From the IMG/VR virus record IMGVR_UViG_3300045988_076436: 64,000 nt of DNA, one strand, 5' to 3'. Both the position numbers and the translations under genes were made by a program. The stretch is from a virus. The notes beneath the pieces are model-generated. The model saw only the letters and a list, made by a program, of their open reading frames with translations. It was not told the DNA's origin and did not search any database. Within the stretch, counting starts at the first letter, position 1. The number at the start of each line of letters is the position of its first letter. This document shows, piece by piece, positions 9,408 through 60,800 of the stretch.

Positions 9408-12400
9408 CTATTGTTGCTTTCCGTTCCTTATCTCATTCACGGCATCCACAAGTTCTTTCTTCTTCTCATTGAGTTCGGCTTCAAGTTCCTTACGTTCATC
9501 GTCCCTCAAAGTCTGGTCTTTCAACTCCTCGTTGATGTCGTCAATGTCACCCGAATACTCCTCGTAGGTTTCCAAGATGCGGTACTCTGGCGAGTTGTTC
9601 AGCCATGCTATCTTGTCGGCATAGTCAAACACTCCGTCTGCCGTATCGTTCTCGTAGTGGTTCAACCGGGTGCGCAACCGCTCGCTTTCGTTCTTTATTC
9701 TGAAATACTCGTTGTTGATTGCACGGTACTCTGTACGCTCGTCACCACTCTTGACAAGTCGGTTCAGCAACAGGAAACTGCGAGGGTCATACTCTCGGTC
9801 GCCAAAGACGGTTTCTCCCATCTTTGTGAGTTTGTCAACCGTTGACGATACTCCGCCAAAGACACCGTTCAGCAGGTATTCCACCTGCGCAGGGTTTATG
9901 TCAATCTTGCCGCTTGTATAGGCATCGCCACCAGTGGCTTCGTTCAGAGCCTTTGAGAGTCCTACCAAATATTTGTTGGCACTCTTGTACGCCTTAGTCC
10001 ATTCGGGCATTTCCTTGTTGAAAGGAGTGTCCTTGTATATCGGCATACCAGTCCATCCCTCGTTGGTCATTACTTCCGCAACAGGCTTGACGGCACTCGG
10101 AATGAAAGACTTGAAGCTGCCGCCTCCCTCCATGAAGTCGATAGGCAACATCTGGCTCACTTGACTTGCAATTTGATTGGCAAGTTCACCTGCGGTGTAG
10201 TGTTCCTTGCCGCTCATCGCGCTCACCATCAGCTCACCCATGCCATACATGGCTCTGTATTCCACAGGGAGAGGAATGCTTATCCACGACTCTTTCATGC
10301 CCGGTGTGCGGAATACGATATTGCTCCTGCGCACATATTCGGGCAAGTTATAGTAGTCGTTCTTGTTCTCATCGTCTCCATCATCACCGCCAATTCCTGC
10401 CATCAATGCACCGAGCAGGAACATTGTGGCGGCTCCTGCAACCGCTTTCTTCGGGTGTCGCTTTGCTTGCCGTCCGAAGTTGGTTGTGCCTTGTATGGCG
10501 GCATTCCAGAACACATAGAAACTGCGGCCAAGTCCCGAGGTGAATGCGGCTACATTGCCGACCTTTTTCTGACCATTCGCACCCATGAACTTTGCGCCAC
10601 TGCCTTTCTTGTTGAAATTCACGCTTATCTCCTTGGCATCATAGATGCTGCGGTCAATGGAGCGTTTCATCTGCCGTGAGGTCATAAAGGCGACAAAACG
10701 TGCGCAGTTCTCCACTGCCCGGTTGTACTCGTCAAGACGCTCACCCAACAAGTCCCAAGCCTTTCTGACTGGCATCTGTCCGCTGTTCTTCTTCAACTCA
10801 CGCTTGATGTCGTTCTTGCGCTGCTCAATGTCACGGATGTTGGCATAGCCTGTCTCACCGCCATTCATCATGAACTGGTGGAACATCTTTTCCGTATCAT
10901 CGTTCATGTCAAGTGTGCCATTGCGCAACTTGGCAAGGAGCGACTTCATCTTGGCAGGGTTCACCTTGGCAAAGTTCTTGTGGAAACGCCATGCGTAGTT
11001 TGGGCTTTCCTTTACCCATACCATTGTGTTGGCATAGAGCGCATCCCTTACAAAGTTCGACACCACGAAGTCGGGGTTTCGTGTGGTGTAGAATGCGGAC
11101 AACTGGCGGTTTATGGTTTCTCCCACACGCAGGATTGCACCGATTGCGCCCGATGTGTCATTGTCGGGGTTGGTCTGTCCGTTCAACGCTTGCGCGGCTC
11201 TCGGGTTGCCATTGATGGTGAGGATGATGTCCCTGCCGTTTCTTTTCACAAGCACTTGGTGCTGTCTGAGGTCGCGGCTCTCCAAGACTCTGTACGGAAA
11301 TTCGGGATTGTCCTTCTGTTTCTTGAAGTGCGCGGGGTCGTTATATGCGGCTTGCCGTATTGCGTCCTCGAAGTCACGCATCTTGCGCTCCACATCGCGA
11401 GGGCTGTCGTCCTCCTCAATGCGCTCCGTGCCTTGCAGGTCACCCGAGTTGATGGGTTGCCACTCGTCAGTCGCGTCATTGTGCCACAGCCACAAGTCGC
11501 TCACACTCACAAGGTCGCTCGGGTGGTTTAGCGCGAAGTTCAAGAATTTCTGCTTCACTAATGTATTGCGGTTGCCCTGCATTATCGCGCTCTCGGCCAT
11601 CGCCTCCATGTTGGCAAACGGGTCGTCGGCCTTGCTCTTGCGTCCCTTGGCGGTTTTGATGGGAGCGTTGAATGCGCTGTGCTTGTCAGAAAGATAGGCA
11701 TACGCCTCGTCACTCGTCTTGTCGTCAAAGCCACGCAACGGTATGTAGTTCTTGTACATTCCGCTGATGTCATTGTATGTGGCCTTGCTGATAAGTCCGC
11801 TCTCGTAGGTTTTCAGCAAGGTGGCATAGTTCACTGCGTTCACCTTGTCCCACAAGTCGTTTGTGGCGTGCCGTCCCTCGTAGTCCGTTACCATGCGCTG
11901 TGCCTCATTCTCCGCGTCCACAACATTGTCAGTACCTGTCAAGGCGGTAAGTCCTGCATAGTCGCGTCCTCGGTTCTCAAAGTATAACTCCTCCTCACGG
12001 TCGTGTTTGCGCTGCTTCACATCGTCAAGCGTGTCTGCCGCATCTTGATCGAGTGGGTCTATGGCTGCGGCTCGCTCAGCCTTGCGCAACTCTATCCTAA
12101 ACTCCTCACCAGCTTGCTTCTCGGCTGATCTGCGTGCCATTACCTCGTTACGCTCCAATCCGTGCTTAGCCATCATATAGTCAGTCAACTCAGCACGCTC
12201 GTCCGCTGTCTCAGCAAGTTTCGCCACCTCCTCAAGCATAGGTTTGAACAATGTCTGCGCAAATGCTGTACACTCTGCTTGGTTTACAGAAGAAAGGCGA
12301 TTTTCACCAAGATAGGCGTTCTCATATCCAGCTACGTCCTCTATGTAAGCCTTTTTGCCCTCTGCTTTGAGTATTGCGTCCATAGCCTCTTTCAGACCGA

Positions 12401-15400
12401 GCATACTATCTTGCAGAGCCTCCTGCGTCTGGTACATTCCACGGCTCACACGCTGCTCGTATATGTCACGTGCCATTGCCTTGTTGTACTCCACACTGTC
12501 GCCATCGCGGAACTTCATGCCCCCATCGGGGTCGGTCTCTGGACTATGGTTGTCCTTTGCAAGTCCTGTCTTGTCGTGATACTCGCCAGTATCAAGCAAA
12601 TCAGAAATACTTTCTGCAATGGCACTCAATGTTCCCGCAGGTGCTTTGCGAATATCCTCTTTGAAGTAAACATACTCGTTTGCAAACTTCCCATCTTCTG
12701 CATGAAATCTGTTAGGACTTCGTTTAGTCTTGATAACAATGCTTTCGACAGGCTCATCACCGACATTTGCTGCGTTGATGTTATGGTTGCTCACTCTGAT
12801 AGTAAACACCTTGCCATTGGGCGTTTCAAATGAGCCATACCCACTTCCAGTGCTGCCTCTTGTCAGACCAAGACTATTGCTTAAATCTGATATAAAGCCC
12901 TTGCTGTCAGTTGTATTCTTGTATGTTTTTGCAACATTTGCAAGTGCTTCTTTGGCTTTCTCACGTTTTTGCTGTACCTTTGCAGCGTGTTCAACATCAG
13001 TAGGCTCTAAGTGCTTAAGTGCTGCCTCATTGAGTTGGGCACTTTTTTTATGTCCATCACTGAACTTCGTCTCACCAAACCCTGTCTTTCTCCGCATTAC
13101 CTCGGTATCGGCTGCGTCAAACACATCGGGCTTACCTCCGTTCTTTTTGCGCTTGTATGCTTCGTGCAGGACAAACGCCCATTCCTTATCACCCCATTTC
13201 TTCTTGCCAGGGATTTTCAATCCGTCAAGCAACTTTTGAAGGGCTTTTTGGAGCATGGACTTCAACTTGCCCCAGAACGTAAGTTCCTCGGCACTCATCT
13301 TCTCAAAGCCTTTCTCACCGATGCGCCCTGCAAGGTCTGCTCCGTATTCCTCCGTGGCATCACGTTTGAACTGCTCGCGCTTCTTGCTTGCCTCGGCATG
13401 AGCCTCTGCCATGTCCGCATAGTAGGAGGCGTTGCTGTCCTCGCCATTGGCCTCATGCTCCTTGCGCTTCTTCTCGCGGAGTCTGTCCACCTCGGCATCG
13501 TACATCTTCTGCGCCATGCGGTCAATGCTGTTCCGTATCTCGTCTTTCGACACGCGGTAGAGTTCATCGAGCGCATTGTTCAGTTTCTCCTCTTCGGGGA
13601 ACAGCACACGCAGTCCGTCATGCCCCACAACCTCATGGATAAACGTGTTCTCCACATCTGCCATGTTTGCGTTGTTCGGCACAACAATGGTTACTTCACC
13701 AGTCAAAGGATTAAAGCTGCCTTTCATTCTGCGCTGGCGTGTACTCGGCAATGCGGCCACCTCCTCGTCCGTGCGGATAATGCGCACAGGTGTATGGAGC
13801 CGCTCTGCCAACTCGTTCACACGCTCGGCCATCGCATTGTTCATCGCCTCCTTGGGTTCGCCCACCCACTTGCCAGACATCTTGGCATTGATGCGTGCAA
13901 TGTCCTCGTTGGTCATGAATGGTGCGTGTCCCTCGCGTCCGGGGATAACATCACGGTTCTCCATATTCTGCCTGTCAAGTGCAAGGCTTTCTTCGGGAGT
14001 GAGTTCTTTACCGTCCAACTCAAAGCGGTAGCCCATCTTCTCCAACTCTCTGCGCACCTGCGGCACAAAGCGGTTGTAGTCGCGGTGGCTCTTCAATGCC
14101 TCACGCTTGCCGGGGTGTTTCTTCCAATATTCGTCAATGAGTTTGGCTTCCTCCTCGCGCGTGAGCACTTTGTCTATCTTGCTCCAGCGTGAGAGGTAGA
14201 GCGTGCGGCCGTTGTTCCACTGATGCGCTCCTGTGGGCAGTAGGGCATAGTCGGTATGGAATGGTTCGTCAATCTCCGATTTCGGAATGAGGCTGCGCAC
14301 CACAACAAGGTTCGGACGCTTGTACGCCTCGCCAAACTGGGTGTTAAGCGGTGTCTCGATGGCATGGTCATAGGGGTCGTATGCCGCCCACAAGCCTTTG
14401 TCCTCGGGGTTCTTCTTCAAGAAGTATTGCAGCTGTGCGTCCTTGGTCTTGGGTTTCACGAACTTCAATCCGTCATTTATCTGCAACTCTGTGGTTTTCT
14501 TGCCGTCCACCACGATGTAGCCGTTCTTGTTGAGTTCGTCCAACTTGCGCTGCTGCTCCTCGGTGAGTTCCACCTTTGGAGGTGCAGAATAGTTCCAACG
14601 TCTGCCTTCCAATGTTCTGCGCTCGCCTGTCTCGGCATCGGTAAATGCCATAGGTGAACCCAGTGCATCATCCTCAAAGGCTTGCACATTGCGATATACA
14701 GGCACAAGCTCGCTGTCGGGCAATGCCTCCAATTCCTGCGCCTTTGGATCATCGTCCTCAAGCAAACGGAACTTGGTCTTGTCTTCCGTTGTATCGTCCT
14801 CATCGTCTGTGACAATATCGGTTGCTGCCTCCACACTTGCGTCCATCTCGGCATACTTCTTTTCCTTTTCTGCCAACTCCTGTTTCATGGCCTCGGTGTA
14901 TTCCTCCAACTGACGCTCGGCTTCTTCGAGTTCCTTACCAAACTCAAACGGTTTGCCCTCACGTGCTTTCAGTTGTTCCAACTCTGATTTGCCACGTTTC
15001 GCCATGCGTGCGGCAATGTCAAAACGCTCTGCGAAGTCCTTACCTGTGATTACATTCTCGGTGATGTCCTCCACGGCATTGCGCAAGAGGGACTGCTTGA
15101 CAGGTATGTCGGTCAGTCCGAGTTCGGGGCATGAGTAGGTCATTTTGCGGTGTACCTCGGCAAAGAGCGAACCGCCATTGTTCACCGTTTCACGCGACAT
15201 CTCGGTCTTGACAACGAAGTCATAACCGCCCAACGACAGGGTGAGCGTGTTGGTCTGTGCCGAATTGCCGGGGTTCTCTTTCATGGCCTTTACCGCATCG
15301 AGGATTTTCTTGTTGTGTTCCTTGATGAAGTCTGCCATGCCGTCCACGGAAGTGAATTTCTGCTTGCCGATGGTTATGTCCGTAAACTTGCCACCAGGGA

Positions 15401-18400
15401 ATGCTTTCTGCACGGCAAGCAGATGGGCATTGGCTTCCTCGGCACGCTGCTCTGCCGTCTTTATCTTTCCCTCCAACTTGGGTTTGGCATTGTGGATATA
15501 GGTCTGGTCGGCCTCCCACTGCCTCCTGCGGCTCTCGTACTTGCGCACGTTCTTCTCCGCGTTGTTCTTCAGCAGGGCATACTCACTGCCCGAAAGCTGC
15601 GCCACGGTATCACCGAACACATCTTCTTCCTCTTCAAGCACACGGTTGTTCATGCTGTCCTGCATGAGGCGGTCGCCCTCCATCACGCTGTCGGCAATCG
15701 CTCCCTTGGTTTTGAGTCGCTGATAGGCGGTTACGTCAAGGCTGTCCTCCACACCAAAGCGAAGAACACGCACAGGCTTTCCCCATTTCTTGTGCAGGTT
15801 GCCTTGTCTGAGGATACGTCCGTTGCGCTGCGTGTAGTCCATCGGTCTGTTGGGCGCGTCAAGGTGGATAAGGGTGTGCAGACGCTCCTGAATGTTCACG
15901 CCTGTACCGAGGGTGGCGGTACTGCCGAGTACCACACGCACCTCGCCACGGTTCACCTTGTCGAAGATGTCAAGTTTCTGCTTTATCTTCATACCTGCTT
16001 TCATTACAACCACTTCATTGGCTGGCACACCCTGCTCAATGAGTTTCCGCTTGATGTCCTCATACAGGTTGAAACCGCTGCGCTTATTCTCGTAGTTGTC
16101 GGCAAATATGGCCACCGTTCCCTTGTAGTCGTTCGTTTCTTTCAGCGAGCGCAGAGTTTGGCGCACGGCCTCGTTGGTCTTGCTCCTTGGGTCATCCTCC
16201 GCATCCACCTGTACCAACCGTGCATCCACTGCCGCTCTTTGCGCTATGCCATACATGGTGAGGGGGATGCTGCTGTTCGCCTTTTTCTCCTTGCCGCTCA
16301 TTTCATCAAAGCGTTTGAGTTCATCGCGCACATACTTCATCACGCTGCGCAGGGCGCGTGTCTGTGGCAGATAGATGTCTTGTGCCTTGCCGCCCTCCAT
16401 TTCGGGTATTTTCTTCACCAACTCGGTTTGCTCCTTGGTCAGCGCAGTGTCTGAAACACTTGACCAGATACGCACCAGTTCGGGCATATTTGTATATCCT
16501 GCAAAACGGTTCACCTCCTCAAATCTGCCACTTGTCTTGAATTCGGGCATCTGCTGTATGTTGCCGAAGTTGCGCACGAAGTCGTCAAAGTAGTAGATAC
16601 CGTACTCCTTCATGGTGTCCTTTGGCATGAGGTAGCGCATGAAAGTCCATATCTCTGCGGCTGTGTTGCTGATAGGCGTACCAGTGGCGAAGATGACGTT
16701 ACGTCCGTTGTTCTTCTCCAACACGGCCTGTGTCTTTAGATACACGCCTTGCGACTTCTTGCTGTACGATGGGTCAACGCCTTTCACACCGTGCTGCATG
16801 GCTGTGGCAAATCCGAGGTGCTTGTATTCGTGCGCCTCGTCAATGAGCAGTGCGTCAATACCCATATCGTCAAAGTTCTCCACATCGTCCGTCCTGCGGT
16901 CGAGCATTTCCTGTGCCTTGACTGCCGCATTTTGCTTGGCTACGGCTTTCTTCTTCTCGTTGTTGGCGGTGCGCTTCTTCGATATGTCGTCCGACAATGC
17001 GGCCATTTCCGCTTGCAGGTCGGCCAACTCCTTTTCGGCTCGTCTCGTTATCGGGTCTCTGCCGCTGGTGTCTGCTTCACGCATCTGTTCAAGCACAAGC
17101 ATCTTCTCGTCTATCTTGTCTTGGATAAACTGCATCTGACGCTCATCGCTGTCGGGGATTTTATCCAACGTACTTTGTGGAATGATTACCATGTCCCAAT
17201 CATTGTACTTTATCTTGGCATAGAAATTCTTTCGTCCCTCCGCGTTGCGGTCATTATCATCAAGCACAAGCACCTTGGCATTGGGGTATAGTTCCTTGGC
17301 CGAGGCAGCAAACTGGCCTACGGTGGCGTTCTGTACCACAATCATAGGTTTGTGTGCCGTGCCGAGTCTGCGCATCTCCATAGCGGTGGAGATAAGGGTG
17401 AAGGTCTTGCCCGTGCCTACCTCATGGGCGAGCAACAGCGGCTGCATGGTGCCGCGCACGATGGCCTTGCCTTGGTGTGGGCGCATCTTGAACTTGTGGG
17501 TCGCGCCTCCGAAGTATTCGGGTACGAAGTCATCGGGGATGCTCATTGGCACATAGTTGTTGAAGCGGTCGTTATACTCTTGCTCCATGCGTGCCGACAA
17601 GTCCGCATCGCTCTGCATCTTCTGTCGTGCCCAGTCCTTGAAGTCCTGCCGTATCTCGTCTATCTTGGCGGCACACGCTGATGTGGCCTCGCGGTCGGTG
17701 ATGGTCTCCGTTGTGCCGTCATAGTGTTTCTCTGTGCGTGATACGACAATCGTTTTGTTCTGTATGGCGGCTCCGATGAGTTCATGTCCCATGACGGTTT
17801 TCTTCAGCATCTCGCTCACCACACCCATTGCACGGTTCTTCTCTCCGCTCACATCGTAGGACAGTTCTTTCATGAACCATGTGCCGCCAGCTGCCGTAAA
17901 CTGCACGTCTATGTCGGTGCGGTCTTTCACATACTCGTTATAGAGTTTGGGGTCAAGCCATGACGAGCCGAGCGTGAAGTCTATCAAGTGGGCAGGGATA
18001 TTCATCGGCACGACTTCCTGCAATGCCTTGATATTCTTGTCATACTCGCCATTCTCGTTGTTGGCCTCTGCCTGTTTCAGTTTCTCGCGCACATTACCGC
18101 TCAGATACTGATACGACACTTCCATCTGACGTGAGGTTGGGTCTTCAAAGCCAAGGCCGCTTTCGATGATTTCACGTTTCACCGCATCCTCGCCCATACC
18201 GAGCTGCCCGGCAATGTAGGGTACATCAATGCGTCCGTTCTTGAACATGCTCACAACAACTCCGTCCTTGACGTTTTCGGGATGCGGCTCGTTCTCTTTC
18301 TCCACGACACGGCCTTTCATCACGTCTGCCTTGTCGTAGGTCTTGACAACACCGCCCTTACCGTCTCCCTGCTCGTTGTACACTTCCAACGAGAACACGT

Positions 18401-21400
18401 TAGGATAGTCCACATCGTTGCGCAGCCATGCCAACTGGTTGTTCTTGGTGAAGTGGCCGTAGGTGTTCACAAAGTTGTCGTATGCCTTGTTGAGTTTGTC
18501 TATCAGCGGCCTAAGTCCTGCATCGCCCTCGTTCTCGGTCTGATACTTCATCACATCGGTCAAGGCGGTCTTGATGGCTGAATAGGCGGTGAAACACTCC
18601 TGCTTGGTGTGTCCCTTTATCTTCTTGTCGTTCACATCAAGCGGATAGTAGCCGCCAAAGCCAGCGGTTACGAGTTTGCCGTCTTTCAGATACATCTCGC
18701 CCAATCGCTTGCCGTCTGCCGAGGCATCATTTACATAAGATGTCTTGTGGCTGTCTGTGGTCTCCACACTGCCGCGTTCTTCTTCCTTGAACGACTGCAC
18801 GAAGTCCGTCAGCATCTTGCCTTGGTCTTTACCGCTTACCGGGTAGAGTCCCTTGCTCGTTGGTCTGAACGTGTCGCCCTCCTCAAAGGCAAAGCGCATT
18901 TCTCCTGCCATGTGGTCGGGGTACTCGATGAAATACTTGTTGTAGTCCATTGAGAGCGGCTTGGCCCTGCGTGCGCCTGGCTCTTGGTATTCTGCTGTGC
19001 GCTCTCCGCTGATGGTGCTTACGTCTATGGCGTTGGCAGACTTCTGACCGTTTACGCGCTTGCGGATAACGATGATGTCCGAGGTTACGGTAGTGCCGCC
19101 AAAGGTCTTGTTGTTCATGCGGAATGCTCCGATAAAGTCCGAACCTCCCTCGTTCACCACCCAGTCACGCAGTGCCTTGCTGTTGTCGAGTGTGCCGTTT
19201 GAGGATATGAAGATACCTAAACCGCCCTCGCGCAACTTGCGCACGTTCTTGGCAATGCAGAAGTCATGGATATTGTGGAACTTCTTTGAGAGGTCGCTGT
19301 CGCCTGTGGTATCGTTCACGCGCAACCCGGTAACGAATGGCACATTGGTGATGGCCAAGTCCACACTGCCGTTGGGTATGCGTGTCTGCTCAAAGCCTTG
19401 TATATCCACCTTGGCATCGGGATAGAGCAATGAGAGAATGCCGCCCGATGTGCCGTCTATCTCGATGGCGTGAATGTCGCTGCGCTCGCTCATGTCGGTA
19501 GGCATCTGGCCGAGGATATTGCCGATACCTGCCGAACCCTCCAAAATGTTGCCGCCCTTGAAACCGAGTTTTCCTGCAATGTCCCAAAGGGTATCGACAA
19601 CATAGGCAGGGGTGTAGTATGCGCTGTTGGCACTCATCACGGCTTGCTCGTAGGCTTCCTCACCAAGCAACTCGCGTATTTTCTTGTTGCGCTCACGCTG
19701 TTTCCAGTCGTAGCCTCCGTCACTGAAAGCGGCTCCAAGTCCGCCCCAACCGCTGAATTGTCTGAGCACACTCATCTGCTCGGAAGTGGCTGTCTCACCG
19801 CTCTCAAGTAATTCGTGTGCCAACTCAATGGCCTTGATATTGGCTTCTATGCGTCCACCTACTGATGTAGGGGCATGGTCTGCACCGCGTTCCGAATGGT
19901 TGTTGCGCGTGTTCTTAGGCTCTGTCAGTCCATGAAGTCCAGCGGACTCAGCCCGATTTGTGCCAGTGCCTTGTCCTCCTCGGCCGCCGTCAGGTCTTCC
20001 ACTTTCTTGTGCAGCAGCTTTGCGAGTCGCTCTTTCGCCTCTTCGTAGTCCTTGCTGTTGTCCACTATTGTCGGCTTGCACCCCTTGGGAGCGTACCGCA
20101 TCATCATTTCGTTGTAATCCATTTTCTTCTGTTTCATCGAACAGCCCGGCAAACAAGTTGCCCACCGTCTGCTCTGGTTTCACTTTCTTCTTCGATGTCT
20201 TTTTCTTCGTTGCTGGTTTTGGCTGCTCTGCCGATGCTGGAGTAGTGGTAGGCTCTGTTGTAGCCTTGGCTGCATTTTTCTCTCGCGCTTCCTTGGCAAT
20301 GCGCTCCGCCTTTTGGAAGATGTCCTCATTCTGCGGCTCTGCTTGCGTCTTGTGTCGCAACTGGTCGGGGTGAGCATTTACCCACATGACAGGTGCTTGG
20401 CCTGTGTCTATGCGTATGCCGTCCAACTCGTTAGGCTGTGCCACTACCGCATCATGCCATGTATTGCCATCTGAAGAATACTGCACCTTGTCGCCAACTT
20501 TGTATTCACCCTTTTTGACATCGCCACGCTCGGGGATATACTTGTATGTGGCACGCTGCACATTCTTCAGCAAGTCGTCATAGGTAACATCTTCTGCAAA
20601 CCACATGTTTTGTCCGTAGCGGTCATTACCGCTTGCGTTCGGGTTCTCCACACGGCACATGATACCTGTCACTTCAAGATTATCACCTCTTCTGTCTGTA
20701 TCGCCCTTATCGAAAGCTGGTTCAAGTTGGATATTCACATACAACTCCCTGCCCTCGGCCAACGGCAAGTGTATGGTTACATCGCCTCCTGCCGGGGCAA
20801 TGTTCGCTACTGCCAACGGCTTTGCCTTGCGGTTGCCTTTCTTGTCGGTCTTGTCGGAATGGGTAGCCTCGTACAGGTCAAGTCCGAGGTCGTCCACCAA
20901 CTGCCCGGCAAGTCTGGCGGCATCGTTCACTGCTTTCTTCTCGGCATTGCGCATATAACCGTATGCCTCGTTGAAGTCTTTCTCCACATGGTCGGCCTCA
21001 TAGTAGCCAAGCAGGGCAAGCTGTTCGTTCACCTCTTCGAGGCTGTCATCTACTCTCTCTGCGGCTGCGCTGAGTTCGTGTCTGTCGCTTGAAGTTCCTG
21101 CGAGAGTTTCTGCTTCGCTTGCAGTAGCCTCTGCTTTTTCTGCAACAGCAGCTGTATCTGCTTCTGTTTGCTTGTCATTTTCTTTTCGTTGCTCATTTCT
21201 TATTGCTTTGAGTTCGTTATTTGCTTTGTCGGCTGCGGTCTGTGCCTTGCCCTCCTCAACAATCATGTCGGCTTGGGCAAGCACATCGTGTTGCGGTTTG
21301 TCGAAGTTCTCCACATCAAAGGCTTTCACCTCCTCGTATGTGGTAAGGGCATATTTATCGTAACCGGGAACATACTCCAATCCACCATAGAAAGCCTTTA

Positions 21401-24400
21401 ACCACGGACGCACCTTGTCGCCAAGTGCCTTTACCATCATGGAGGCATAGTCACCGAATGACTCGTTGCCACGCTCCACCATTGCCATAGCCAGACGCTG
21501 ACCAACGGACATGAGTTTCTGACGCTGCTCTGCGGTCAGTTCTTCGGGATCACGGAACTTCAGCCCTGCATCGCCCTCGTCTGCACCAATGCCGAGAATA
21601 TCACGGATGTCATTCATCAATCCGTTCATTTCCTCGTCACTCACCTCATACTTAGGCTTTTCTGCCTCCTTGGTCGGCTGTTTGGGTTCTTCCTTGGTTG
21701 GCTCTGTCGGCTTTTGTTCTGTCACATCGGCCACCTCAACCTTGTTGGCAGGTTTCTTAGCTATGGTTTTCTTCCGTGTTGCAGGCTTCTTCGGCTCTAC
21801 GGCATCGCGCAACTCTTGTGCGGTCAGTGGCTGTGCGTCTGCCACGGCATCGGCATTGCCCACCATGTCTGCTGCTTTCTTCGCGTCCTCCTCACTGCGG
21901 AACATCCAGCCTCCGCTCTTGCGGTCTTTCCAACCGCGTGCAGGAGAAAAGCGTCCCTCGCCAAGTCTCTCCTTGGCAAATTCACTTACGGCACGCTCTT
22001 GGTCGGCTGTCAGTGCGCCATCAAACGTAAGCAGGGATACATCGCTCGCCTTACCTTTCTTATTAGTATAGGTGGTAGGAGTGATGGTATAAGCTGCATT
22101 GTCTGCATTTCCCGTTGTCGGTGCTGCCGTATCTTCCTTTGCAGGAGAACTTGCCACGGTCTCTTTCTTCACCCCGGCATACTCCGCAAACGGCTTGGTC
22201 TTGCGGTGGCTGCTGTCTATCCACTTCTCGAAATCTTCGAGGTTCGTTGTGGACACGATAATCCTGCGCCCATCTTCCCAACCTTTCTCATAGTTGGCCA
22301 GATAGTCGCTCTTCGCCTCGTCCATGTCGTTAAAGCCAAGCATCACCTTGTGCTCGTCAAACGTGCCATCGGGATTGTACTGGTCCACCACATACACCTT
22401 GCGCCCGTTCCAACCGTCAATATCATTGGAGAGGAACACATCTATGTGGTCTCCGTCCACGCCCACTGCACCACGAATGTAGCCGTAAGTGTTGTTCATC
22501 TTGCTTTCCCATTGTTTGCCGTTGGCATCCGTGCCTTTGCGCACACTGCCCTCTGGCTGCTCAATGGTAATGTCGAACGTGCCGACCTGCACATGACCTT
22601 TCTTGTAGTTGCCGGCCTCTTTCTGTGCCTCGGTGGGTTCGGTGTTCACATCGGCTGATGCGGTCTTTATCTTGGCTGACAACGGCTGCTCCGCTCCGTC
22701 AAGGTGTTTGACAACCTCTTGGAGGTCGCCAAACTGCTTGCCGTCCACCTCATAGTAAGTACCGGGATAGTTCTTGCTCTCGTCTGGAGCGTCCACTTTG
22801 ATTACTTCCTTGCCGTCAATGAGGAGTTTCTGCTTGTAGATGTCGCCATTTGCGCTTGGCTCTGTCCACTCCTCATCGGTTTCGGTAATGCGCTTGCGCA
22901 ATGCCTCTTCCTCTGCCTCGGCAAGTGTGTCAGTATTTGGTTCTTCTGCCTGTGGAGTATTATCCTGCTTGGCAGGTTCGGTCTCGGCTACTGCTGGCTG
23001 TTGAGGCTCTGCACTGCGTTGTACAGCATCCGCAGTTTGTTCAGTTGCCTCGTTTCCTCCACGCTGTTCTGCCTCGGCTTCTGCGGTGCGCTTGCGTTCT
23101 GCAATGGCTGCATCGACGAGGGCTTGTTGTTCTCTTGGTGTTGCATTTCTGAATAATTCATTTACGTCATTAAGTATTTGTTCCTTGGAACGTACATCGC
23201 CAGTAAACATATCCAACTGACCACCAGCTGGAGCTACTGCGGCACTATTATAGGTAGAGAGTACTTTGCGCAGGTCACTTGGCTTACCGCTGTTCAGTAT
23301 GTCGGCAAGCATCAATACCGTGCCGTCCGTCACTCGGCTGTCTCCGTATTCATCATCAAACAGACCTTGCTCCCTGCCGAATGGCGACACAGGCATTCCG
23401 TCCTTGAAGATGTCGGGGTGTGCGCTCTTGGCTCTTGCCACGAGGTCAACGGCTGCACCCAACTCATTGCTTAGGTCGTAGCCACTTTTGGCGAGTGTGC
23501 GGTTATGGGCTATCTCGTTCAAGCCCATAATGACCGACTGGCGCAATGTGGGTGTACTGATGATATGGCGCACGGCATCGGGCGAAGTCTGAAAGACCTT
23601 GCCTATAAGCGTGTTCTCGATAAGTTCCTTTCCTGCTGCCGACAACGAATTGCCTGTGCGCATTTCGGGCAGCTGCATCTCGTTGATGACTCCTGCACCG
23701 AGCAACTGACTGATAGCCGAAGATACTGCCTTGTCGTCTGCGTAGTAGTCTGAAAGGCGGTCAAAGCGGCTTATGTCATTGGTGATGCTCGTGAAAACAT
23801 TGTCGGGGACAATCTTGCCGAGTTTCACCGCGTGCTCTGGCTTGCTCTGTTTCTTCTGCTGTTCAGCGTTGAAACGTGCGAATGTGGTTGCATCGTAGGG
23901 CAGTTGCTCGTCCGGGACAAACACCACACGCGGATGTTTCATACCGTCTATCTGCTCGGGAGTGAAACCGTACATCTGTCCGAACTCGCGCAGATGGTCG
24001 ATATACGCCTTGTCTGTTCCCTGCTGAGCTGCAATGTCGCCCGACATGGTGCGGTTGTTGCCCGAAAGCACTACACCGTCCTTGCTCACGATGACAGGCG
24101 ACTGCAAGGCGCGGCTGTCGTAATTGTTGGCAATGTCCCTCACTATCCGCTGTGCGTCCGTGTCGCGCTTGTAGTCGCGGTCGTTCACGCTCTCTCCGTT
24201 CTCGTCAATGGGGAAACCCTCGGTCGGTTCAAAGGCGTTGTTGATGTCGTGGCTTGCTGACGCGGCTCCTGCCTCGGTGAGGACGTAATGCCCACGAATG
24301 GTAGAACCGTCCGCAAGGGTGAGTGCGTTGGGATTGCCCTCCACCTTGGCGGCACCGTTCCACTTGGCCTTTATCTTCGGGTTCACGGCATGAGTGCCTA

Positions 24401-27400
24401 CCTCGGCTTGCTCGGCAGCTTTCTGTGCCGCAATGCGTTTCTGCTCCCCGACCTGCGCCACGGCTGCATCGTGCATCTGCTTGTCGCGCTCACGTTGCTC
24501 TGCCTCACGCTGTTCACGAATTGCACGCTTACGCTCGTTCATAAGGGCGTAAATCCTCGACCATGCGCCCAGTGTCTCCTCTGCCTCCGCCACTTGTGCG
24601 TTGTACTGCTCCATGGCGGCATTGTAGTTGGCATCGGCCTCCTGCTGTGCCTTGACCATCGCCATAGGCGAACCTTTGAGGGACGGTGCTTTCTTGGTCG
24701 GCTGTTTCTTCTTCAGCGCATCGAGTGTCTTTTGCGCTTGCTCCACCTGCGCATTGACAATGGCGGTGGTGTTGGCCTCGTTGCCGCCTGTAACCTCGTT
24801 GAGCGCGTCAAGGGCAGTCTCCTTGTCGGCCTTCTCAAACATGGGTTCGCCAGTCTCCTCATTAAGAGGAACACGCTCCAGTGCAGTCGGCTGGCGGTTG
24901 GCCTCTTTCCACTGCACGCCTTGCGCTTCAAGTTGGTGCTGGGCAAGCTCATTTCCTCCACGCGCCATCTGTACAAGTTCTTCAGTTGTCGGAGAGGCAG
25001 GAGCAACAACATCATTGTCTTGCGGTGCGGAATTATCTGAAGCCTCCTCGGTCGCATCCGCATCTTCGGCATATTCTCTCGTCCATACCGGATTACCATC
25101 CGCATCATTAATGCTCTCGACCATATTCTCAAACTCCTCGACAGGGATAATCTGCACACGCTTTCCGTTTAACGGCTCGTCTGTGCGTATCTCTACACCG
25201 TCATCGCTGATATTCTGCACCTCGCCATGAACGTTTGCACCATCACCGTCAAGGAGTGTAAAGGTGTCATTCACGCCATATTGTACACCCTCGAGCGTTT
25301 TTTGTACACTTTCGCCATCATTCTGTACATTTTCATCCGATTTTGGTACGCTTTCACCATTTTCCATACCACCAAGCACGGCCTCATGCTCAGCTTGAAT
25401 GTTGGCATAAGCCTCGTCAAGTTCGGCTTGTGGGTCAATGGCATCACCGAGATTGAAGATTTGGTCGGGACTGGTAAACTTGTATTCGCCTGTCTCGGCA
25501 TCGCATATCACAATGCTTTGGTCGGAGTTCTGTGTGTCTATGCCTGTACCATCGGGAAGTACTGCGACATTACCTTTTACAATGTACACAGGCTTGTCGT
25601 CCACCTTCATGGTAGCTGGTTGCACCATGCCGTTGTCCTTGTGGGTGTGTCGCTCCACATTGGCGGCTACCTCCCTGCGCTTATTCTCCATCGCATCGTT
25701 GGACGCATCCTGCACACCGTCCATCGCTGCCTTGGCATTGATGTAGTAGAGTACCGCATTCTGCTGGTCTTCCGTCAGTTCGGGGTCGTTGGCCAATGCC
25801 CACGGATTATCCTGTATCTCGGCCATGCGCATTTCTGCGTCCGTGCCGAAAGCGTCCTCACATTCCTGCAAGGCTTCTTTCATGCGAATGGATATGGCAT
25901 CAATATCGGCTTTCGCGTCCGCGTCTCCTTGCTCCATTTTGTCCCACAACAGGCGAGACTGGTCGTAAACGGCTGAGGCTCCTGCCTCCTCGTCCGACAT
26001 GGGTTGCTCGGCTTCCTTGCTTTGCTCCGGGAACAACCGCTCTATGTAGTCCTGCACAGCAGCCTTTTCAGGGTCAGTACGCTTGCTCGGCTCTTTTTTG
26101 ATGGCCGCGTCCACATCTACGCCTGTCTCTTCCTTGATGGCTGCACGGATAGCCTCTGGACGTTCTGCGTCTGCCATGCCTCTGTTCTCTTCCATGAACT
26201 TGTCAATGGCATCGACCATCTGCCCATAGTTGGCGATTGCGTCCTTGTCGCCCTCCTTTGCAGCTTGGTAGTTGCGCTTGACGGTTTCGGGGTCAGCACC
26301 GGGGGCAACGGCTTCAACAGCTGCGTCCCACACCTTGTTGTCGGCTTTAGCCTCGGTGTAACGCTCACCTACATCAACGCTGTTGAGTTCGGCCTGTCGC
26401 ATGATTTTGTCCTGCTCCCTCTTGGCTGATGCCTCGTCTGCAAAGCGTCTGTTCGTTACGACCTCGCCATTGGCTGTAACGGACTTCACGAAGATATTGC
26501 CGTGTTCGTCCTTTTCGGTGGTGTACCCGGTAACAGTACCCATCGGCAACTGATGCCCGGTGAGGATATAATATGCCTTGGCTCTTGCGCTCTGGCTCAC
26601 ATTCGGGTCTTGCATGAGGCGTTCCATAGTCTCGTAACCGTCAAACTCGGGGTGTGTCTTGAGCCACTGCTTGCCCAAATCCTCAACCTCGGCTTCGGGA
26701 ATGTCAAAGTTCATTACCTTTCCGTCCGTGGTTGTCGGCTGTTTTGCCTTGGCTTTGGGCTGCTGTTTTGGTGTACGCGTGAAGAGTGCCGCAAGGTCGC
26801 CATAGCCGTACTTCTGCAACTCCTCGCGCTCTTCCTTGGTGAATACCATGTCGCGCGGACTTGCGTCCAACTGCTTACGCAACAATTCACCAAAACTCAT
26901 GCGGTTGTGATTGCGCTCCTGCATGGTCTTGGGGTTCTCGATAGGGCGCAACCCTGCAATAACCCTCGGAGCGGACTTCACCATGTGCTGACCCTTGAAA
27001 CCGAGCATCATCGCCATGTTGTCCGTCCACACGTCCCATGCACTGCGCTTATTGGGATTGCCATCTTCCAACTTGGAATTTTCAATCCATTCGGGAGTAG
27101 AGAAGATTGTCCCCTCGGCAACGGTTGATGTCGCAAGTTCTCCAAAACGGATACCTCCCTTACCATACACGTTTGATGTACTTTTTACCCATTTGTCGGC
27201 AACATTGCCCAACAATGGGGAGATAGTGCCAGTTACAGAGCCAAGGATAGTGCCTCGTCCTGTCGATTTCAAGATGTCCTCTGCCGAATATCCCTCATTC
27301 TCGCCTGTCTGCGGATTGATGTGTCCGCCATGCAGCCACTGGCTCTCGCCCTCCTTGATGCCCTCGTATGTGCCGAAGTTCAAGCCTCCACCAACCGAGC

Positions 27401-55301: not shown

Positions 55302-56792
55302 TTAAGTGAAGTTATACTTGCGCTTGCTGCCGTCAAACACCTCACACTTGATGATGGTCTCGAATGGAAAGCCGTCCTCTATGTCGCTTATCTGGTCAAG
55401 TATGCCTTTCATCTCCAACGAGGCGGTGAAGAACTTGCCCCATTCCGAGTTGGCTGGATTGCGGAATGACACCAAATAGCGGTCTTCGCCCTCTTTTGTG
55501 TCTATGCCTGTCTCAAAGTCGTGAATTTCTATCGGTATGTTCACGATGTCACCGAGGCGTGTCACCTTGCCGGGAAAGCGTTTCTTGCCGTCAGCAGGTG
55601 TATAGGTTACGCCCATTTCTGAAAACTTCTTCATGTGTTTACCTGTTAATGTATAATATAGATGTTTACAATCTGCGTGGCAAGCCATTCCCTTGAATGA
55701 CCCTATTATCTGTTGCCGCCTCTTGCGCGACTTTATCTTGGCGAGTTTCCGTGCAGCGTTCACCTTGGTACGCTTTCTCAGCAGGGAGTAGTCCCCATAA
55801 TCAACAAAGCCGAGTGCGTCCATTCCTGCACTGATGGGTGCAACTTTCTCACTCGGCTTTATTATCAGATTGTAGGGTTTGCATAGTCTATGCAGGGTGT
55901 CCCTGTGTTTCCACAACTCTTTCTTGTTGTCTCCAAGTATGTATATGTCGTCACAAAAGCGGTTGTAGTTGTCTTTTCCACATTCCTCTATCATGGCATG
56001 GTCTATGTCGTTGTGGTACAGGTTGCCGAAAAACTGCGAGGAGCGTAGTCCCTTGCTGATGCCTACGTTGTCATTCGGGTGCAGAGCCTTTACAAAGTCT
56101 ATGAGTATGGGCAGCAGCACTGGGTCGGCAATGTAGCGTTTTATTATCTCTATCAGTCGGTCATGCAGTATGTGGTCGTAGTAACCTTTGTAGTCGCTTT
56201 GATAGTAGTATATGAGTTTCGGATTGTTCCGCCTTGCCTCCTGCATCTTGTGATACAATCCGTGTGGCCCTCTTCCCTCTATCGAGGCTGCGGTGTTCTC
56301 TATCAGTATGGGCGCAAGGTGTTTTTCCACTATCTCCATGATGGCGTTGCTGCCCACACGCTCTATGACGGACGGTGCTTGCACGGTTCTTATCTTCGGG
56401 CCGTCTGCCGTCTCAAACGATTTAAGGTGCTTGATGCGGAATGTGCCGTTGGCTATCTGTGCCTTTAGCATGGCGATGATGTCCGCCTTGCGTTTCATGT
56501 AGCGCACCATGCGTGGCGTGCATTCCACTCCGTCTATAACAATATTCTCCCTCCACCGTAGGCCGTTGCGAGTATCTGCGTTGTGCAGGTTCGACATGAC
56601 GCGCTTGAACGAGCGTTCCATGTTCTCGTCCGCTATGATTTCGGGGATAAGGTCTAATAACGGAAAACAGATAGAAGTCTTTTCTTCTACCTGCCCCAAT
56701 AGTTCTTCCAATGTATTGACAGCCTTCCTGTCCTGTGGGGAGATACTTGCGCACTCCCCACATGTGGTTAATGTCGTGTTCCGGCTTTCCAT
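55302..56792 (-). CDS. DGR-type reverse transcriptase with an extra C-terminal domain (496 aa from ATG 56792; track ORF from GTG 56855)
   Basis: RT motifs: YYYQSDYKGYYDHI (catalytic Asp), GISKGLRSSQFFGNLY (the GxxxSQ hallmark of DGR RTs, cf. Bordetella IGNLTSQFFANVY) and RFCDDIYILG (xxDD). It lies adjacent to the TR. Confidence 0.9.
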   Translation of the reverse strand: MESRNTTLTTCGECASISPQDRKAVNTLEELLGQVEEKTSICFPLLDLIPEIIADENMERSFKRVMSNLHNADTRNGLRWRENIVIDGVECTPRMVRYMKRKADIIAMLKAQIANGTFRIKHLKSFETADGPKIRTVQAPSVIERVGSNAIMEIVEKHLAPILIENTAASIEGRGPHGLYHKMQEARRNNPKLIYYYQSDYKGYYDHILHDRLIEIIKRYIADPVLLPILIDFVKALHPNDNVGISKGLRSSQFFGNLYHNDIDHAMIEECGKDNYNRFCDDIYILGDNKKELWKHRDTLHRLCKPYNLIIKPSEKVAPISAGMDALGFVDYGDYSLLRKRTKVNAARKLAKIKSRKRRQQIIGSFKGMACHADCKHLYYTLTGKHMKKFSEMGVTYTPADGKKRFPGKVTRLGDIVNIPIEIHDFETGIDTKEGEDRYLVSFRNPANSEWGKFFTASLEMKGILDQISDIEDGFPFETIIKCEVFDGSKRKYNFT

Positions 56793-56886
56793 ATTTATAT
56801 GCTGTTGCCGAGGCTCTAATCCCTCGGAGTATGTTTGTGGCAATCCTCGTGCCACGTCAGAGACCTCCGATTAAACTTAACCAAGA

Positions 56887-57814: not shown

Positions 57815-60800
57815 TTATCCGACTATTACGAATTTGCCGCGGAAGGCCAGCCGCCCACCGAAGCCCGTGAGCGAGAACGAAGAAGCGAAGTTCGCGACCG
57901 CAAAGGCGAGACCGCTGTTCGCATTCGAGACGCCGCCAGACCGCAGAACACAGCGGCCTCTGCTGCCGGGAAACCACAAACCTGCCGCATAGTGGGTGGT
58001 GTACTTGCTCGTGTCGGTCTGATGCACCTTGCTTGGCAAGATGTCGCACTTCGCTCCATGCACCACTCTCACAACGCAGTTGCCGTTAGAGTTCACACTC
58101 TGCACCACACGCTCGGTTTTCTTCACCGGGTCATAGATGTGGAATTTGTAGTCTATGGGGTCATCGTTGGTCTCCACACAGCGGTTCTTGTAGAACGTCT
58201 CGTAGCTCTGCACGTTTCCTGCTATGTAGTCCATCCATTCCGAGTCGCAGCCCACATAGTGTTTGAGTCCCATGATGGAGTTCATTGCGTTGCCCACATA
58301 CGAGGTGTCGGCCATACCTATGTTGTCGAGGCTGTTCAGCGTGGCATCGTGTGCGCCATTGCCAACAACAGACTGCTCGTTGGTCGTGCCGTGGGTCGCC
58401 CACCACAGGTTGCTGATTTCCTTGTGCTGCTCGTAGTCTTGGAGCTGGTAGCCCTCTCCGCGCATGTGCGCACTGTTTTGGAAGTCCTTTGCCGTGTAGT
58501 GTATCGTCCCGGTCGGTGTCTCTGTCGGGTTGCCGTCAGTGTCGTATGCCCATTCTGCCGAGGTCTGCGAAGTGCCGTCTCCCTTGCGTGAGCGCACCGC
58601 GCCCGATATGCTCCTTGGTCGTTTCAGTCCGTCTATGGTGATGGGGTATGTTCCCAAGAGGCTGTCGTTCTCGCCAACGGTGTGCTCCGTCCATTCGGGT
58701 TCTATGGCCTCTATATGCTCGCTATCAACGGCAAGACACAGGCTGTCCTCTATGTCGCGGTACGAGGTGAAGTACATCCACTTCGCTCCGCCAGGCACAT
58801 CGCAGAACACGTAGTTGCCTATCGAGAAGTCGAAGTAGGTGTGGCTCACCATCATGTTGAACTTGCCTACTATCTGTCCGTTCTCGTCCGTGAACACGGC
58901 TCCGAGCCTTGCGTGGTTCAGTCCCGGCCATCTCACCTGCTTCATGCCCTCCACGTCCATGCGGTAGGCGTTCACGTTGGCAGCGGTGGTGATGATGTTC
59001 TCGTCTATCACCGTGCCTACCTCTGCCTCGTCAGCATACACGCCTGTGTTCTCCGCATAGAGCAGTGCCGATAGCATGGCCTCGCGCTTGTTGTTCACGG
59101 TGGATAGCGGCTCGTTCTCCGTGGTCGAATAGACGATGTACTTCTGTTGGTTCTTGTAGTCGTTCACGCCCTTGTACCAGTGGTGGGGCAGATGGTGGAA
59201 GATGTCAAAGCCCTCTCCTGCGCTATCGCCCACATCGAAACTCTCGCCTGTGGCAAGATAGTTGAAGTCGCTGTCGCTCAGTTGCACGCCCTCCATCTGT
59301 TTGAGTTTGGAGTTGTAGGTACACTTGTAGGCGTGGGTCTCCTGCAATATCTTCAGTGTGTGTCCGCTCGCCACAAAGGTCTTGTCGTAGTCCGAACCTG
59401 TCTTGTTTTCGGGGTTGCTGTATCGCTCACAGAAGTCTCCGCTCACGATGTCGTCTATCTTCACCACCGAGAACTGCGAGTTGATGACGGTCAGTTTCGG
59501 GAAGTATTTCTGCAATGCCTCCACCTCGCTGTCCTCCACAAGTTCTGTCAGTATCCATCGGCCGATGATGCCGCTGCACTGCCCGGTCTCATCGTAGGTG
59601 CTGCCGTTCGCGTCTATGCCCACGGCTTCGCTCTGCATGATGCCGCGCAGCATCTCCACGCTGGCGGTGGCGTTCACGCCCGGTATGCGCACGCTCTTCA
59701 GCTGTCCTGCCGTGGTTATCTGCCGCAGCAGGGTCATGGTGTCGATGTGCGGACACTCGTCAAGGAACATTTTCTTCACGTTCGTCATTCCTGCTATGGT
59801 CAGTCCGCCAGGATAGGTCAGCTTGGGCAGGTTCTTGAAGTAGAGCGTGGTCATGGTGGCTGGCAGTTCAAGGGTCTCTATCGGGGCTGTCTCGGCAAGG
59901 TCTATGCTCGACAGTTGCGAACCGCTCGCCAACACCTCTTTCAGTCTCGGGCAGTACGAGGCGATGATGCTTGTTACCTTGGTGTTGCGTGCGTCTATGC
60001 GTCTGAGGAAACTCTTGTTGCCCATGTTGAGCTGCGTGATTGCTCCGCTTTCCTCGGCTGGCGTGTAGTCCGCTCCGCCAAGTATCAGTTCTTGCAGCAT
60101 CGTGCAGTTCGAGATGTCCCAACCCTCGGCTTTCGGGGTGCAGCCGCTGATGTCAAGACTGGCAAGGCGTGTCGCTCCGAACACGTAGAGCATCGTTCCT
60201 GCGCCTGTGGCGGTCATGCCGCTCTTCAGCGTGTAGCTTTCTCCTGCTTTCAGATAGCAGCTGTCCACACAAGCGTCCGCACGGTCCACTCCTAATCCGA
60301 AGAAGCCGTCCTGCACTGCCGTTATCTTGATGCTGATGTCCGTACCCACGGCACGCATCTTGAACGGATTAGTGTACAGCTCGCCCACTTGGTAGTAGCC
60401 GTCACGGTAGGCAAAGCGTTTCTCAAACGTCACGGGCAAGTCCTCATATCGCAATCCGTGTACGGCATAGTAGTAGTTTGCACCTGCCTTGGAGTTCTCG
60501 ATGTACTTGCGCTCTCCGTCAAACGAGCTGGTTATCTTCGCCCACTTCGCTATGCGGTCGGTGATCCAGAGTTTCTTGCAGCCGTCTGCGGAGAATATCT
60601 TGATGCCGTCTGCCTCCGCGCTGCGCATATCGCCCGCTATGTCGTGCAGCGTGATGGTGGTCTTGCCCTCATCTTCAAGCCAGAACTTGTCAGCTGCATA
60701 ACCTTGCTTGAACATTACAGAATTCCAACCTTGGTAATAATGCTTAGTGTCTGTCACGCTGTCCAAATCCCATGGCACAGTAATACCGCAGTCATTGTCA

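Follow-up and report, generated by a model that had tools for sequence, protein, structure and literature searches.

A conserved reading frame embedded in the linker of a giant DarB-like anti-restriction gene is probably an overlapping small gene

Introduction

The 64,000-nucleotide (nt) stretch of the IMG/VR virus record IMGVR_UViG_3300045988_076436, which as a whole is called the window here, carries on its minus strand a giant gene for a DarB-like polyvalent anti-restriction protein, and in the linker before the methyltransferase (MTase) domain of this gene a second open reading frame (ORF) runs in the +1 frame. The locus raises the question whether the same nucleotides are translated into two different proteins. 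The original prediction, which was made from the sequence alone, placed three answers side by side: an overprinted small gene, a +1 recoding event, and two compensating frameshifts. The analysis of codon usage, conservation and substitution patterns described below suggests that the interval 20122..19925 on the minus strand is most probably a genuine, independently initiated overlapping gene of 65 codons located in the linker of the DarB-like gene. The embedded ORF was delimited in two ways:

19925..20122, minus strand: candidate small gene of 65 codons and a TGA stop, embedded in the giant gene in its +1 frame, product MDYNEMMMRYAPKGCKPTIVDNSKDYEEAKERLAKLLHKKVEDLTAAEEDKALAQIGLSPLDFMD
19925..20137, minus strand: the ORF as first delimited, 70 codons plus TGA, from a non-conserved upstream ATG (MKQKK...)

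For the longer interval the frame and the stop at 19925 were right, but the start was not, as the upstream ATG at 20137 is missing or replaced by stops in homologs, and the start that is conserved (MDY...) lies five codons further downstream, at 20122. The embedded product contains the segment YAPKGCKPTIVDNSK.

Codon usage of the embedded and host frames

The original claim of a hidden +1-frame ORF with better codon usage than its host was confirmed. Codons ending in G or C make up 53 of 71 in the embedded frame versus 20 of 71 in the host frame, and hence the earlier hand count of about 50 of 65 versus 20 of 66 was right as well; for the host frame of the whole gene the value is 62%. This inversion of the G/C content at third codon positions (GC3) is the most extreme in the giant gene. 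An index analogous to the codon adaptation index (CAI), which was built on the phage's own genes, gave 0.71 for the embedded frame. This is the 99.5th percentile of +1-frame windows, and the value for genuine coding windows is 0.744 ± 0.055. The host frame over the ORF scored 0.463, under the minimum (0.573) of all other host-frame windows. Both measures, the frame-specific GC3 and codon adaptation, fit embedded coding.

The length of the ORF is unexceptional: when the stop-to-stop stretches of the +1 frame are ranked by length across the giant gene, its own, of 84 codons, comes fifth. There are also other GC3 inversions in this gene (about 23198-22940, 25500-25100, 21330-21100, and 13140), and they correspond to A/E/Q-rich linkers whose +1 frames contain stops. 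Among them, the linkers at about 22940-23198, 25100-25514, and 13050-13142 on the minus strand are A/E/Q/T-rich, use GAA, GCA, CAA, and ACA codons and have +1 frames that are not protein-like. GC3 inversion alone is not diagnostic in the giant gene. Because the ORF length is unremarkable and other compositional inversions exist, the composition is a lead and not a proof.

Conservation of the embedded ORF in related loci

A search with the N-terminal segment of the MTase module returned 80 IMG/VR loci with 72-95% protein identity. A +1-frame ORF is present at the equivalent place in all 80 of them, and in 78 it belongs to the same 65-codon family. After genome and metagenome loci were added, about 150 loci were searched with a pattern that required an initial methionine. 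The conservation in orthologs, which had been proposed as a check, was seen in this search as 104 ORFs of this family (type A) in 104 homologous loci, one per locus; for 96 of them the surrounding host ORF has 500 codons or more. By construction, all 104 loci have the ATG, since the collecting pattern demanded it. The consensus of the family is MDYxEMMxxAPKxCQPTV(V/I)D..KDY.EA...(L/V)AK....K.VE.LT..E...A...IGL(C/S).LDF.., followed by a stop. The position of this stop is fixed while its identity varies (TAA in 50 loci, TGA in 40, and TAG in 14), and the length of the ORF is 58-72 codons across the loci and 65 codons in close clades. Hence, the alternative frame is open between fixed start and stop positions over diverged homologs, which is the behavior expected of an embedded gene. 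Upstream of the methionine the embedded frame is not conserved and is often closed, with a stop 1-8 codons upstream in 37 of the 104 loci, and 1-2 codons upstream in four.

Copies from different clades are only about 50% identical, and no frame-breaking indels separate them. The upstream modules of the host gene differ between clades, and the small ORF and the MTase module remain together. In the truncated loci the host ORF starts only 85-230 codons upstream. Relics of about 300 nt were also observed in bacterial chromosomes from metagenome-assembled genomes (MAGs), at loci L084/L085/L100 (ORF at 10001-10195 in L084) and L103 (6001-6195); in these relics the small ORF is intact and only 103-120 codons of the surrounding host frame are left. 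The L084 relic adjoins a Cas1 gene and short fragments of asparaginase, peptidase S46, and SpoU methylase genes, in a layout that is repeated in two samples, while the L103 relic is located in a Parabacteroides MAG.

Selection on the two frames

To describe the selection acting on each frame, a codon alignment of 54 aligned codons from 42 unique sequences was used. In the embedded frame, 53 of 54 third positions, which are the first positions of the host frame, are variable, while first and second positions vary in 33 and 30 of the 54 codons. The ratio of nonsynonymous to synonymous differences (pN/pS), computed from pooled pairwise proportions among related sequences in an overlapping region, so that its absolute values are rough, was 0.34 overall in the embedded frame, with 0.24 inside either of two clades. 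The host frame over the same ORF gave 1.96 overall, and 1.45 and 1.60 within the clades. The flank control behaved as expected: in the 200 codons directly downstream, pN/pS of the host frame was 0.14 and that of the shifted frames about 2.1.

The same change is visible along the sequence. In a sliding analysis the maximal variability moves from position 3 of the host codons to position 3 of the embedded codons at the ATG, and reverts at the stop. The diversity at host position 3 falls from 0.22-0.29 outside the ORF to about 0.05 inside, which means that synonymous variation of the host frame, another of the proposed checks, is suppressed exactly over the ORF. The embedded ORF is the only long continuous phase flip in 7.4 kb of aligned sequence.

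Even though its codons change freely, the host frame is open in 42 of 42 unique sequences, compared with a mean chance of 1.25% estimated by synonymous re-sampling from the phage codon usage with the embedded peptide fixed. Embedded codons ending in T were found before codons starting with AA, AG, or GA in 0 of 1075 cases, versus 186 of 1613 elsewhere, and the GC3 of the embedded frame is raised because T-ending codons are avoided in this context. The +2 frame contains 5.4 stops per sequence. As judged from this alignment, the embedded frame is under purifying selection on its amino acid sequence, and the host frame is free in sequence and kept without stops, being read as a disordered G/R/Q-rich linker. 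The pN/pS pattern and the open host frame together indicate that the region is truly dual-coding. Hence, the 104 loci, pN/pS and the phase flip all support the proposal that the linker preceding the MTase domain contains an overprinted small gene.

The start of the small gene

The sequence preceding the conserved ATG is rich in adenosines:

20123..20142, minus strand: A-rich leader before the conserved ATG, TTCGATGAAACAGAAGAAA, with A at position -3

The fraction of A at positions -20 to -1 is 0.5, which ranks at the 97th percentile when all 469 ATGs of the giant gene are compared and falls among the values of real gene starts elsewhere in the window. At position -3, 102 of the 104 loci have A, and otherwise the upstream sequence is variable, with no Shine–Dalgarno-like or conserved purine-rich motif evident in it. 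Genes of Bacteroidota usually start in a similar context. An internal promoter was considered for the conserved upstream sequence 'TTTGTTTG' and rejected, as its conservation is accounted for by the LF..LF peptide motif of the host frame, the codons of which vary synonymously.

The small protein and its homologs

A profile search of 5.8 billion proteins returned 113 matches, all of them 37-110 residues long. An exhaustive hidden Markov model (HMM) search of 1.84 billion representatives returned 50 matches, nearly all of 49-110 residues and most aligned from residue 1; the few long HMM matches repeatedly covered a short central stretch only. No giant protein with the peptide in-frame was found among either the 5.8 billion or the 1.84 billion sequences. 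Most of the database copies are nested in giant ORFs that are uncalled or split. In three lineages the small gene is free-standing, with the host frame closed. One of them (L147/L148) lies between NERD and PDDEXK genes and genes for a C5 DNA methylase and an AAA_5 protein, another (L150) in an island that also encodes three DNA methylases, RE_NgoBV, and an integrase, and the third (L088) after a T5orf172 gene and before a hairpin with a T-run. Pfam searches of the neighbors of the free-standing copies gave nothing useful.

An AlphaFold2 model based on a 65-sequence alignment predicted four helices with a predicted local distance difference test (pLDDT) score of 88.7. The small protein is acidic, with a net charge of -4, and starts with MDYNEMMMRYAPKGC, without a hydrophobic leader. 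Its identity with the small protein Ulx of phage P1 was examined by hhalign of the family profile against Ulx and rejected, as the probability was 0.1%.

Other small ORFs in the same slot and in the same gene

Two further kinds of +1-frame ORFs occupy the same slot in related phages. Type B is an ORF of 87 codons, found in Bacteroides phage BKO1-TP3 (L001, at about 11740-12000), where no coding sequence is annotated at the equivalent slot, and in 22 near-identical contigs (L108-L129). Type C is an ORF of 66-71 codons found in 17 contigs (L130-L146, at about 1501-1716), nested in 16 of the 17, and also in L047; its sequence is MSKKYTYNLAPALPSEKEDTN..RWERA..LT.EEW.., and its pN/pS is 0.42 versus 1.33 for the host frame. 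Both types, which were found without the initial-methionine pattern, also begin with ATG. Homology among the three types was not established by hhalign, which gave a probability of 29% for types A and C (with a KKVEDLTxEE core) and 1.7% for types A and B. These data raise the possibility, which we consider doubtful, of a conserved gene-in-a-linker slot in giant, injected anti-restriction proteins with at least three small-ORF families (A, B, and C), overprinted through domain fusion, with the disordered linker as the newer frame, and encoding functional partners or regulators of the DarB-like enzyme, or independent anti-restriction factors, as would be in line with the free-standing relatives in restriction-modification islands.

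One of the type C contigs, L139, has a 1-nt deletion in a C-run at about 1490-1500 (CGCCCCGG -> CGCCCGG, compared with L135), by which the upstream giant ORF enters the embedded frame and ends at the embedded stop. This deletion could be either a homopolymer assembly error or a natural split variant.

A second candidate +1-frame ORF, at 21050..21196 on the minus strand, consists of 48 codons (MSNEKKMTSKQKQIQLLLQKKQRLLQAKQKLSQELQATDTNSAQPQRE) and is located in an A/E/T-rich linker of the host gene. There, the first positions of the host codons are the most variable, and pN/pS is 0.44 in the +1 frame versus 0.80 in the host frame (0.31 versus 1.06 for the first 24 codons). The ORF is open in 18 of 19 unique close homologs, with an internal stop in L021, while two others lose the terminal stop. 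This candidate is weaker, Q/K-rich and of low complexity, and the evidence on it is ambiguous.

The host gene and its setting

The following features of the host gene surround the embedded ORF:

9408..28754, minus strand: host gene of 6,448 codons, polyvalent DarB-like anti-restriction gene, assigned from the ORF list, Pfam domains, the BKO1-TP3 annotation, and its neighbors
20136..20159, minus strand: host-frame motif NLFAGLFD, directly upstream of the linker, with the amino acids kept and the codons varying synonymously (TTG/TTA, TTT/TTC) among homologs
19926..20132, minus strand: host-frame linker, residues 2875-2943 of the giant protein, G/R/Q/A-rich, free to change and kept stop-free
19896..19922, minus strand: host-frame motif EPKNTRNNH, the start of the conserved DarB-like MTase-helicase module, three bases past the embedded stop
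19335..19541, minus strand: MTase motifs of the downstream module, EGSAGIGN (19541-19518) and ITNVPF (19352-19335), assigned from sequence motifs and from the alignment to the P1 DarB MTase

The Pfam domains found in the giant protein are ddrB-ParB, InPase, ResIII/SNF2-rel_dom/Helicase_C, and LPD38. Its C-terminal half is homologous to P1 DarB in BLASTP, both in the MTase region (E 2e-19, 29% identity) and in the helicase region (E 7e-21), and it has the N6-adenine MTase fused to an SF2/SNF2 helicase that defines a DarB-like anti-restriction protein. The nearest cultured relative of the host gene is a 5,553-codon gene of BKO1-TP3, which is annotated as 'DarB-like antirestriction'. The extra domains (LPD38, ddrB-ParB, and InPase) and the position in the head-morphogenesis region are those of polyvalent genes, and the domain set marks the product as a 'polyvalent protein' of the kind described previously (PMC5512222). 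The gene is flanked by a 411-codon ORF on one side and by the portal gene, immediately downstream, on the other; genes for the large terminase and an integrase are nearby. Together with BKO1-TP3 as the closest relative, the DarB-like gene and its portal, terminase, and integrase neighbors identify the source as a temperate Bacteroidales phage or prophage.

Strong host-frame constraint, with pN/pS of 0.14, begins at EPKNTRNNH, the blastn similarity to BKO1-TP3 DNA begins at 19922, and P1 DarB can be aligned from its residue 47 onward, at a point 28 residues downstream of window position 19934. In the linker, hydrophobic residues account for 19%, compared with 37% gene-wide. In several loci (L052, L062-L067, L072-L075, and L080-L081) an extra host-frame segment of about 85 residues (..NEQSIEGKRKKEIE..GGEHEISGI.YYELANVFHCNDNISGPF..) is present between the embedded stop and the (P/S)KNT(R/H) motif, and this insertion shows that the embedded stop and the beginning of the MTase module can be separated. 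Just upstream of LFAGLFD, at 20250..20354 on the minus strand, all three codon positions are highly variable among close homologs (diversity 0.24-0.44); such a pattern would fit a junction of modules or a hypervariable linker rich in K/P/T/A.

Elsewhere in the window, there is a reverse-transcriptase gene at 55302..56855 on the minus strand (phrog_1423, E 2e-89), and a second very large ORF at 57815..63997, also on the minus strand, with at least 2,060 codons (phrog_14959) and a listed start three bases from the window edge.

Synthesis, origin and possible role of the small protein

The observations on both frames can be explained by a small protein that would be made by independent internal initiation on the mRNA of the giant gene, from the conserved ATG, with translation ending at the conserved stop, which precedes the DarB-like module by three bases. 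Internal initiation is favored over +1 frameshifting by the A-rich context of the ATG, by the predicted fold of the product, and by the lack of a shift motif, of RNA structure, and of a restart codon, as there is no host-frame ATG or GTG for termination-reinitiation near the embedded stop in this sequence. The small gene may be the older partner of the overlap, and the host linker frame may have arisen when the DarB-like module became fused to upstream modules, reading across the small gene. This order of events is inferred from the free-standing homologs, the confident predicted fold and the normal codon usage of the small gene. From the start of the P1 DarB alignment at residue 47, a darB gene standing alone would also be expected to start right behind the embedded stop.

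As to its role, our best guess, offered tentatively and with clearly less confidence than the existence of the gene, is that the small protein is an accessory factor or regulator of the DarB-like methyltransferase-helicase, or else a separate factor acting in the conflict between restriction and anti-restriction. The link to restriction conflicts is suggested by the fixed association of the ORF with the module border, whatever lies upstream, and by the location of its free-standing relatives among DNA methylase and restriction genes.

Several observations weigh against the proposed gene or its proposed role. The local RNA folding at the start is only at the 81st percentile of weakness, the initiation context as a whole is merely suggestive, and the pN/pS values have the roughness stated above. 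The free-standing homologs are few and distant (E 1e-10 to 1e-14), and tblastn found no match to the peptide among GenBank phages and PLSDB plasmids, which yields no cultured carrier of exactly this family. A function has no support from homology, because Pfam searches with the peptide and 65 family members returned noise below the threshold, no PHROGs match of the peptide had an E under 0.02, and the best Foldseek match of the model in PDB and BFVD had E of about 0.8.

Alternative explanations

The explanation that survives best beside an internally initiated gene, and which we nevertheless consider improbable, is a programmed +1 frameshift near 20122 with termination at 19925, which would yield a truncated N-terminal polyprotein of ~2,875 residues carrying a 65-residue C-terminal module. 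The geometry of the locus would permit it, as the embedded frame is the +1 frame and ends right before the DarB-like module, and the C-run deletion in L139 creates exactly the fusion product that such a frameshift would make; that deletion, however, is a single homopolymer indel. The recoding event that had been proposed near 20122 is not supported by the sequences surrounding the ATG. With embedded-frame stops 1-8 codons upstream of it in 37 of 104 loci (1-2 codons in four), a conserved shift site has no space, the sequence ahead of the ATG is variable, and no conserved slippery motif is present at either end of the ORF. Furthermore, the ORF begins with ATG not only in all 104 type A loci, where the pattern required it, but also in the two other, seemingly unrelated cassette types, and the free-standing homologs and the small proteins in databases begin at the conserved methionine. 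There is also no notable RNA structure, with folding z-scores of -0.44 at the start, +0.63 at the stop, and +0.36 in the body of the ORF.

Somewhat less probable still is that the act of translation matters and not the peptide, for example for ribosome traffic on the giant mRNA, or that the ORF is a decaying relic of a swallowed gene. The short copies present without the giant gene in bacterial chromosomes (L084/L085/L100 and L103) could be seen in this way. On the other hand, the sequence, length, start and stop are conserved between clades that are about 50% identical, with pN/pS of 0.24-0.34, the predicted fold is confident, and the free-standing homologs behave as ordinary genes.

It is very unlikely that the conservation is non-coding, reflecting either a nucleotide-level element, such as an RNA structure or binding site, or a purine-rich compositional chance. 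Such a chance could be argued from the other low-GC3 linkers of the gene, which are purely compositional, and from the unexceptional ORF length, but the three-base periodicity is in the embedded register and is bounded by the start and stop codons of the ORF, the +2 frame is full of stops, the RNA folding is not significant, and the peptide family is diverse yet conserved in amino acids, with a confident AlphaFold2 model. Finally, the idea of two compensating frameshifts, evolutionary or from assembly, by which the giant protein would truly use the embedded frame and the R/G/Q-rich reading would be an artifact, agrees with the host-frame codon usage being the worst in the gene here while that of the embedded frame is normal, but it is effectively refuted by the two-frame layout shared by 96 loci on separate contigs from many samples, by the closure of the embedded frame upstream of the ATG in many loci and its conserved stop at the end, by the active maintenance of the open host frame against a chance of ~1%, and by the lack of any large protein with the peptide in-frame among the searched sequences.

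Implications

Gene callers skip same-strand nested ORFs, and as a result this widespread family is largely unannotated; the copies of the peptide in databases are nameless or labeled hypothetical. With more than 100 loci and with flank and frame controls, the locus could serve as a positive control for the detection of overlapping genes. It also illustrates a route to overlap that is rarely discussed, in which an existing small gene, read in another frame, appears to provide a giant multi-domain protein with a disordered linker. Both the location of the small gene and the surroundings in which its free-standing relatives occur suggest a further player in the DNA restriction conflict between gut Bacteroidales and their phages. 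Since the host linker tolerates change, separation-of-function mutants would be easy to design.

Comparison with known systems

The gene Rz1 of phage lambda, located within Rz, is an embedded spanin gene of the kind found in double-stranded DNA phages, with its own start and with the overlap in a flexible part of the host protein. What the locus described here shares with it is the complete nesting of a small gene in the +1 frame of a larger one on the same strand. However, Rz1, which is encoded in a lysis cassette, carries the signal sequence and lipobox of a lipoprotein, while here the product is acidic, starts with MDYNEMM, and is embedded in an anti-restriction gene next to the portal gene. 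The host is a polyvalent protein of 6,448 residues, and, unlike Rz1, the embedded gene is seemingly the older partner. An Rz1-type o-spanin was therefore rejected as an identity for the small protein, which has no hydrophobic leader and is hosted by an anti-restriction polyprotein, and the resemblance is architectural only.

Overprinting in small phages is usually put down to the compression of tiny genomes, and the embedded gene is then the newer of the two. In these phages, two proteins are encoded per DNA stretch by overprinted genes such as E in D, B in A, and K of phiX174, and L of MS2 (PMC8227390). The similarity to the present locus is that one frame is constrained while the other encodes a disordered or tolerant segment. 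The differences are that the genome here is about 64 kb, that the novel frame is apparently the host linker, and that at least three small-ORF families occupy the same slot in related phages. The small protein itself is related neither to Rz1 nor to the overprinted gene products of phiX174 and MS2.

The host gene is itself a typical member of the polyvalent proteins of phages and conjugative elements, which unite numerous effector domains in a single polypeptide (Iyer et al. 2017, PMC5512222), as it contains the MTase-helicase dyad, LPD38, ddrB-ParB, and InPase. On the other hand, an embedded gene in an inter-domain linker is outside the architecture described in that work, the main text of which is without mention of frameshift, overlap, or linker, and no earlier description of an embedded small gene of this kind was found in full-text literature searches or in PMC5512222.

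In phage P1, DarB works with small accessory proteins encoded nearby, including Ulx, DdrA, DdrB, Hdf, and DarA (PMC12810830, PMC5512222). The homology of the C-terminal half of the host protein to DarB and the adjoining portal gene, as for P1 darB, are shared with this system, and by this parallel the embedded protein may have an accessory role. The arrangement differs, as ulx is a separate gene of 146 codons downstream of darB and is not embedded. Same-strand embedded genes as such are known, and the one described here probably had an unusual origin.

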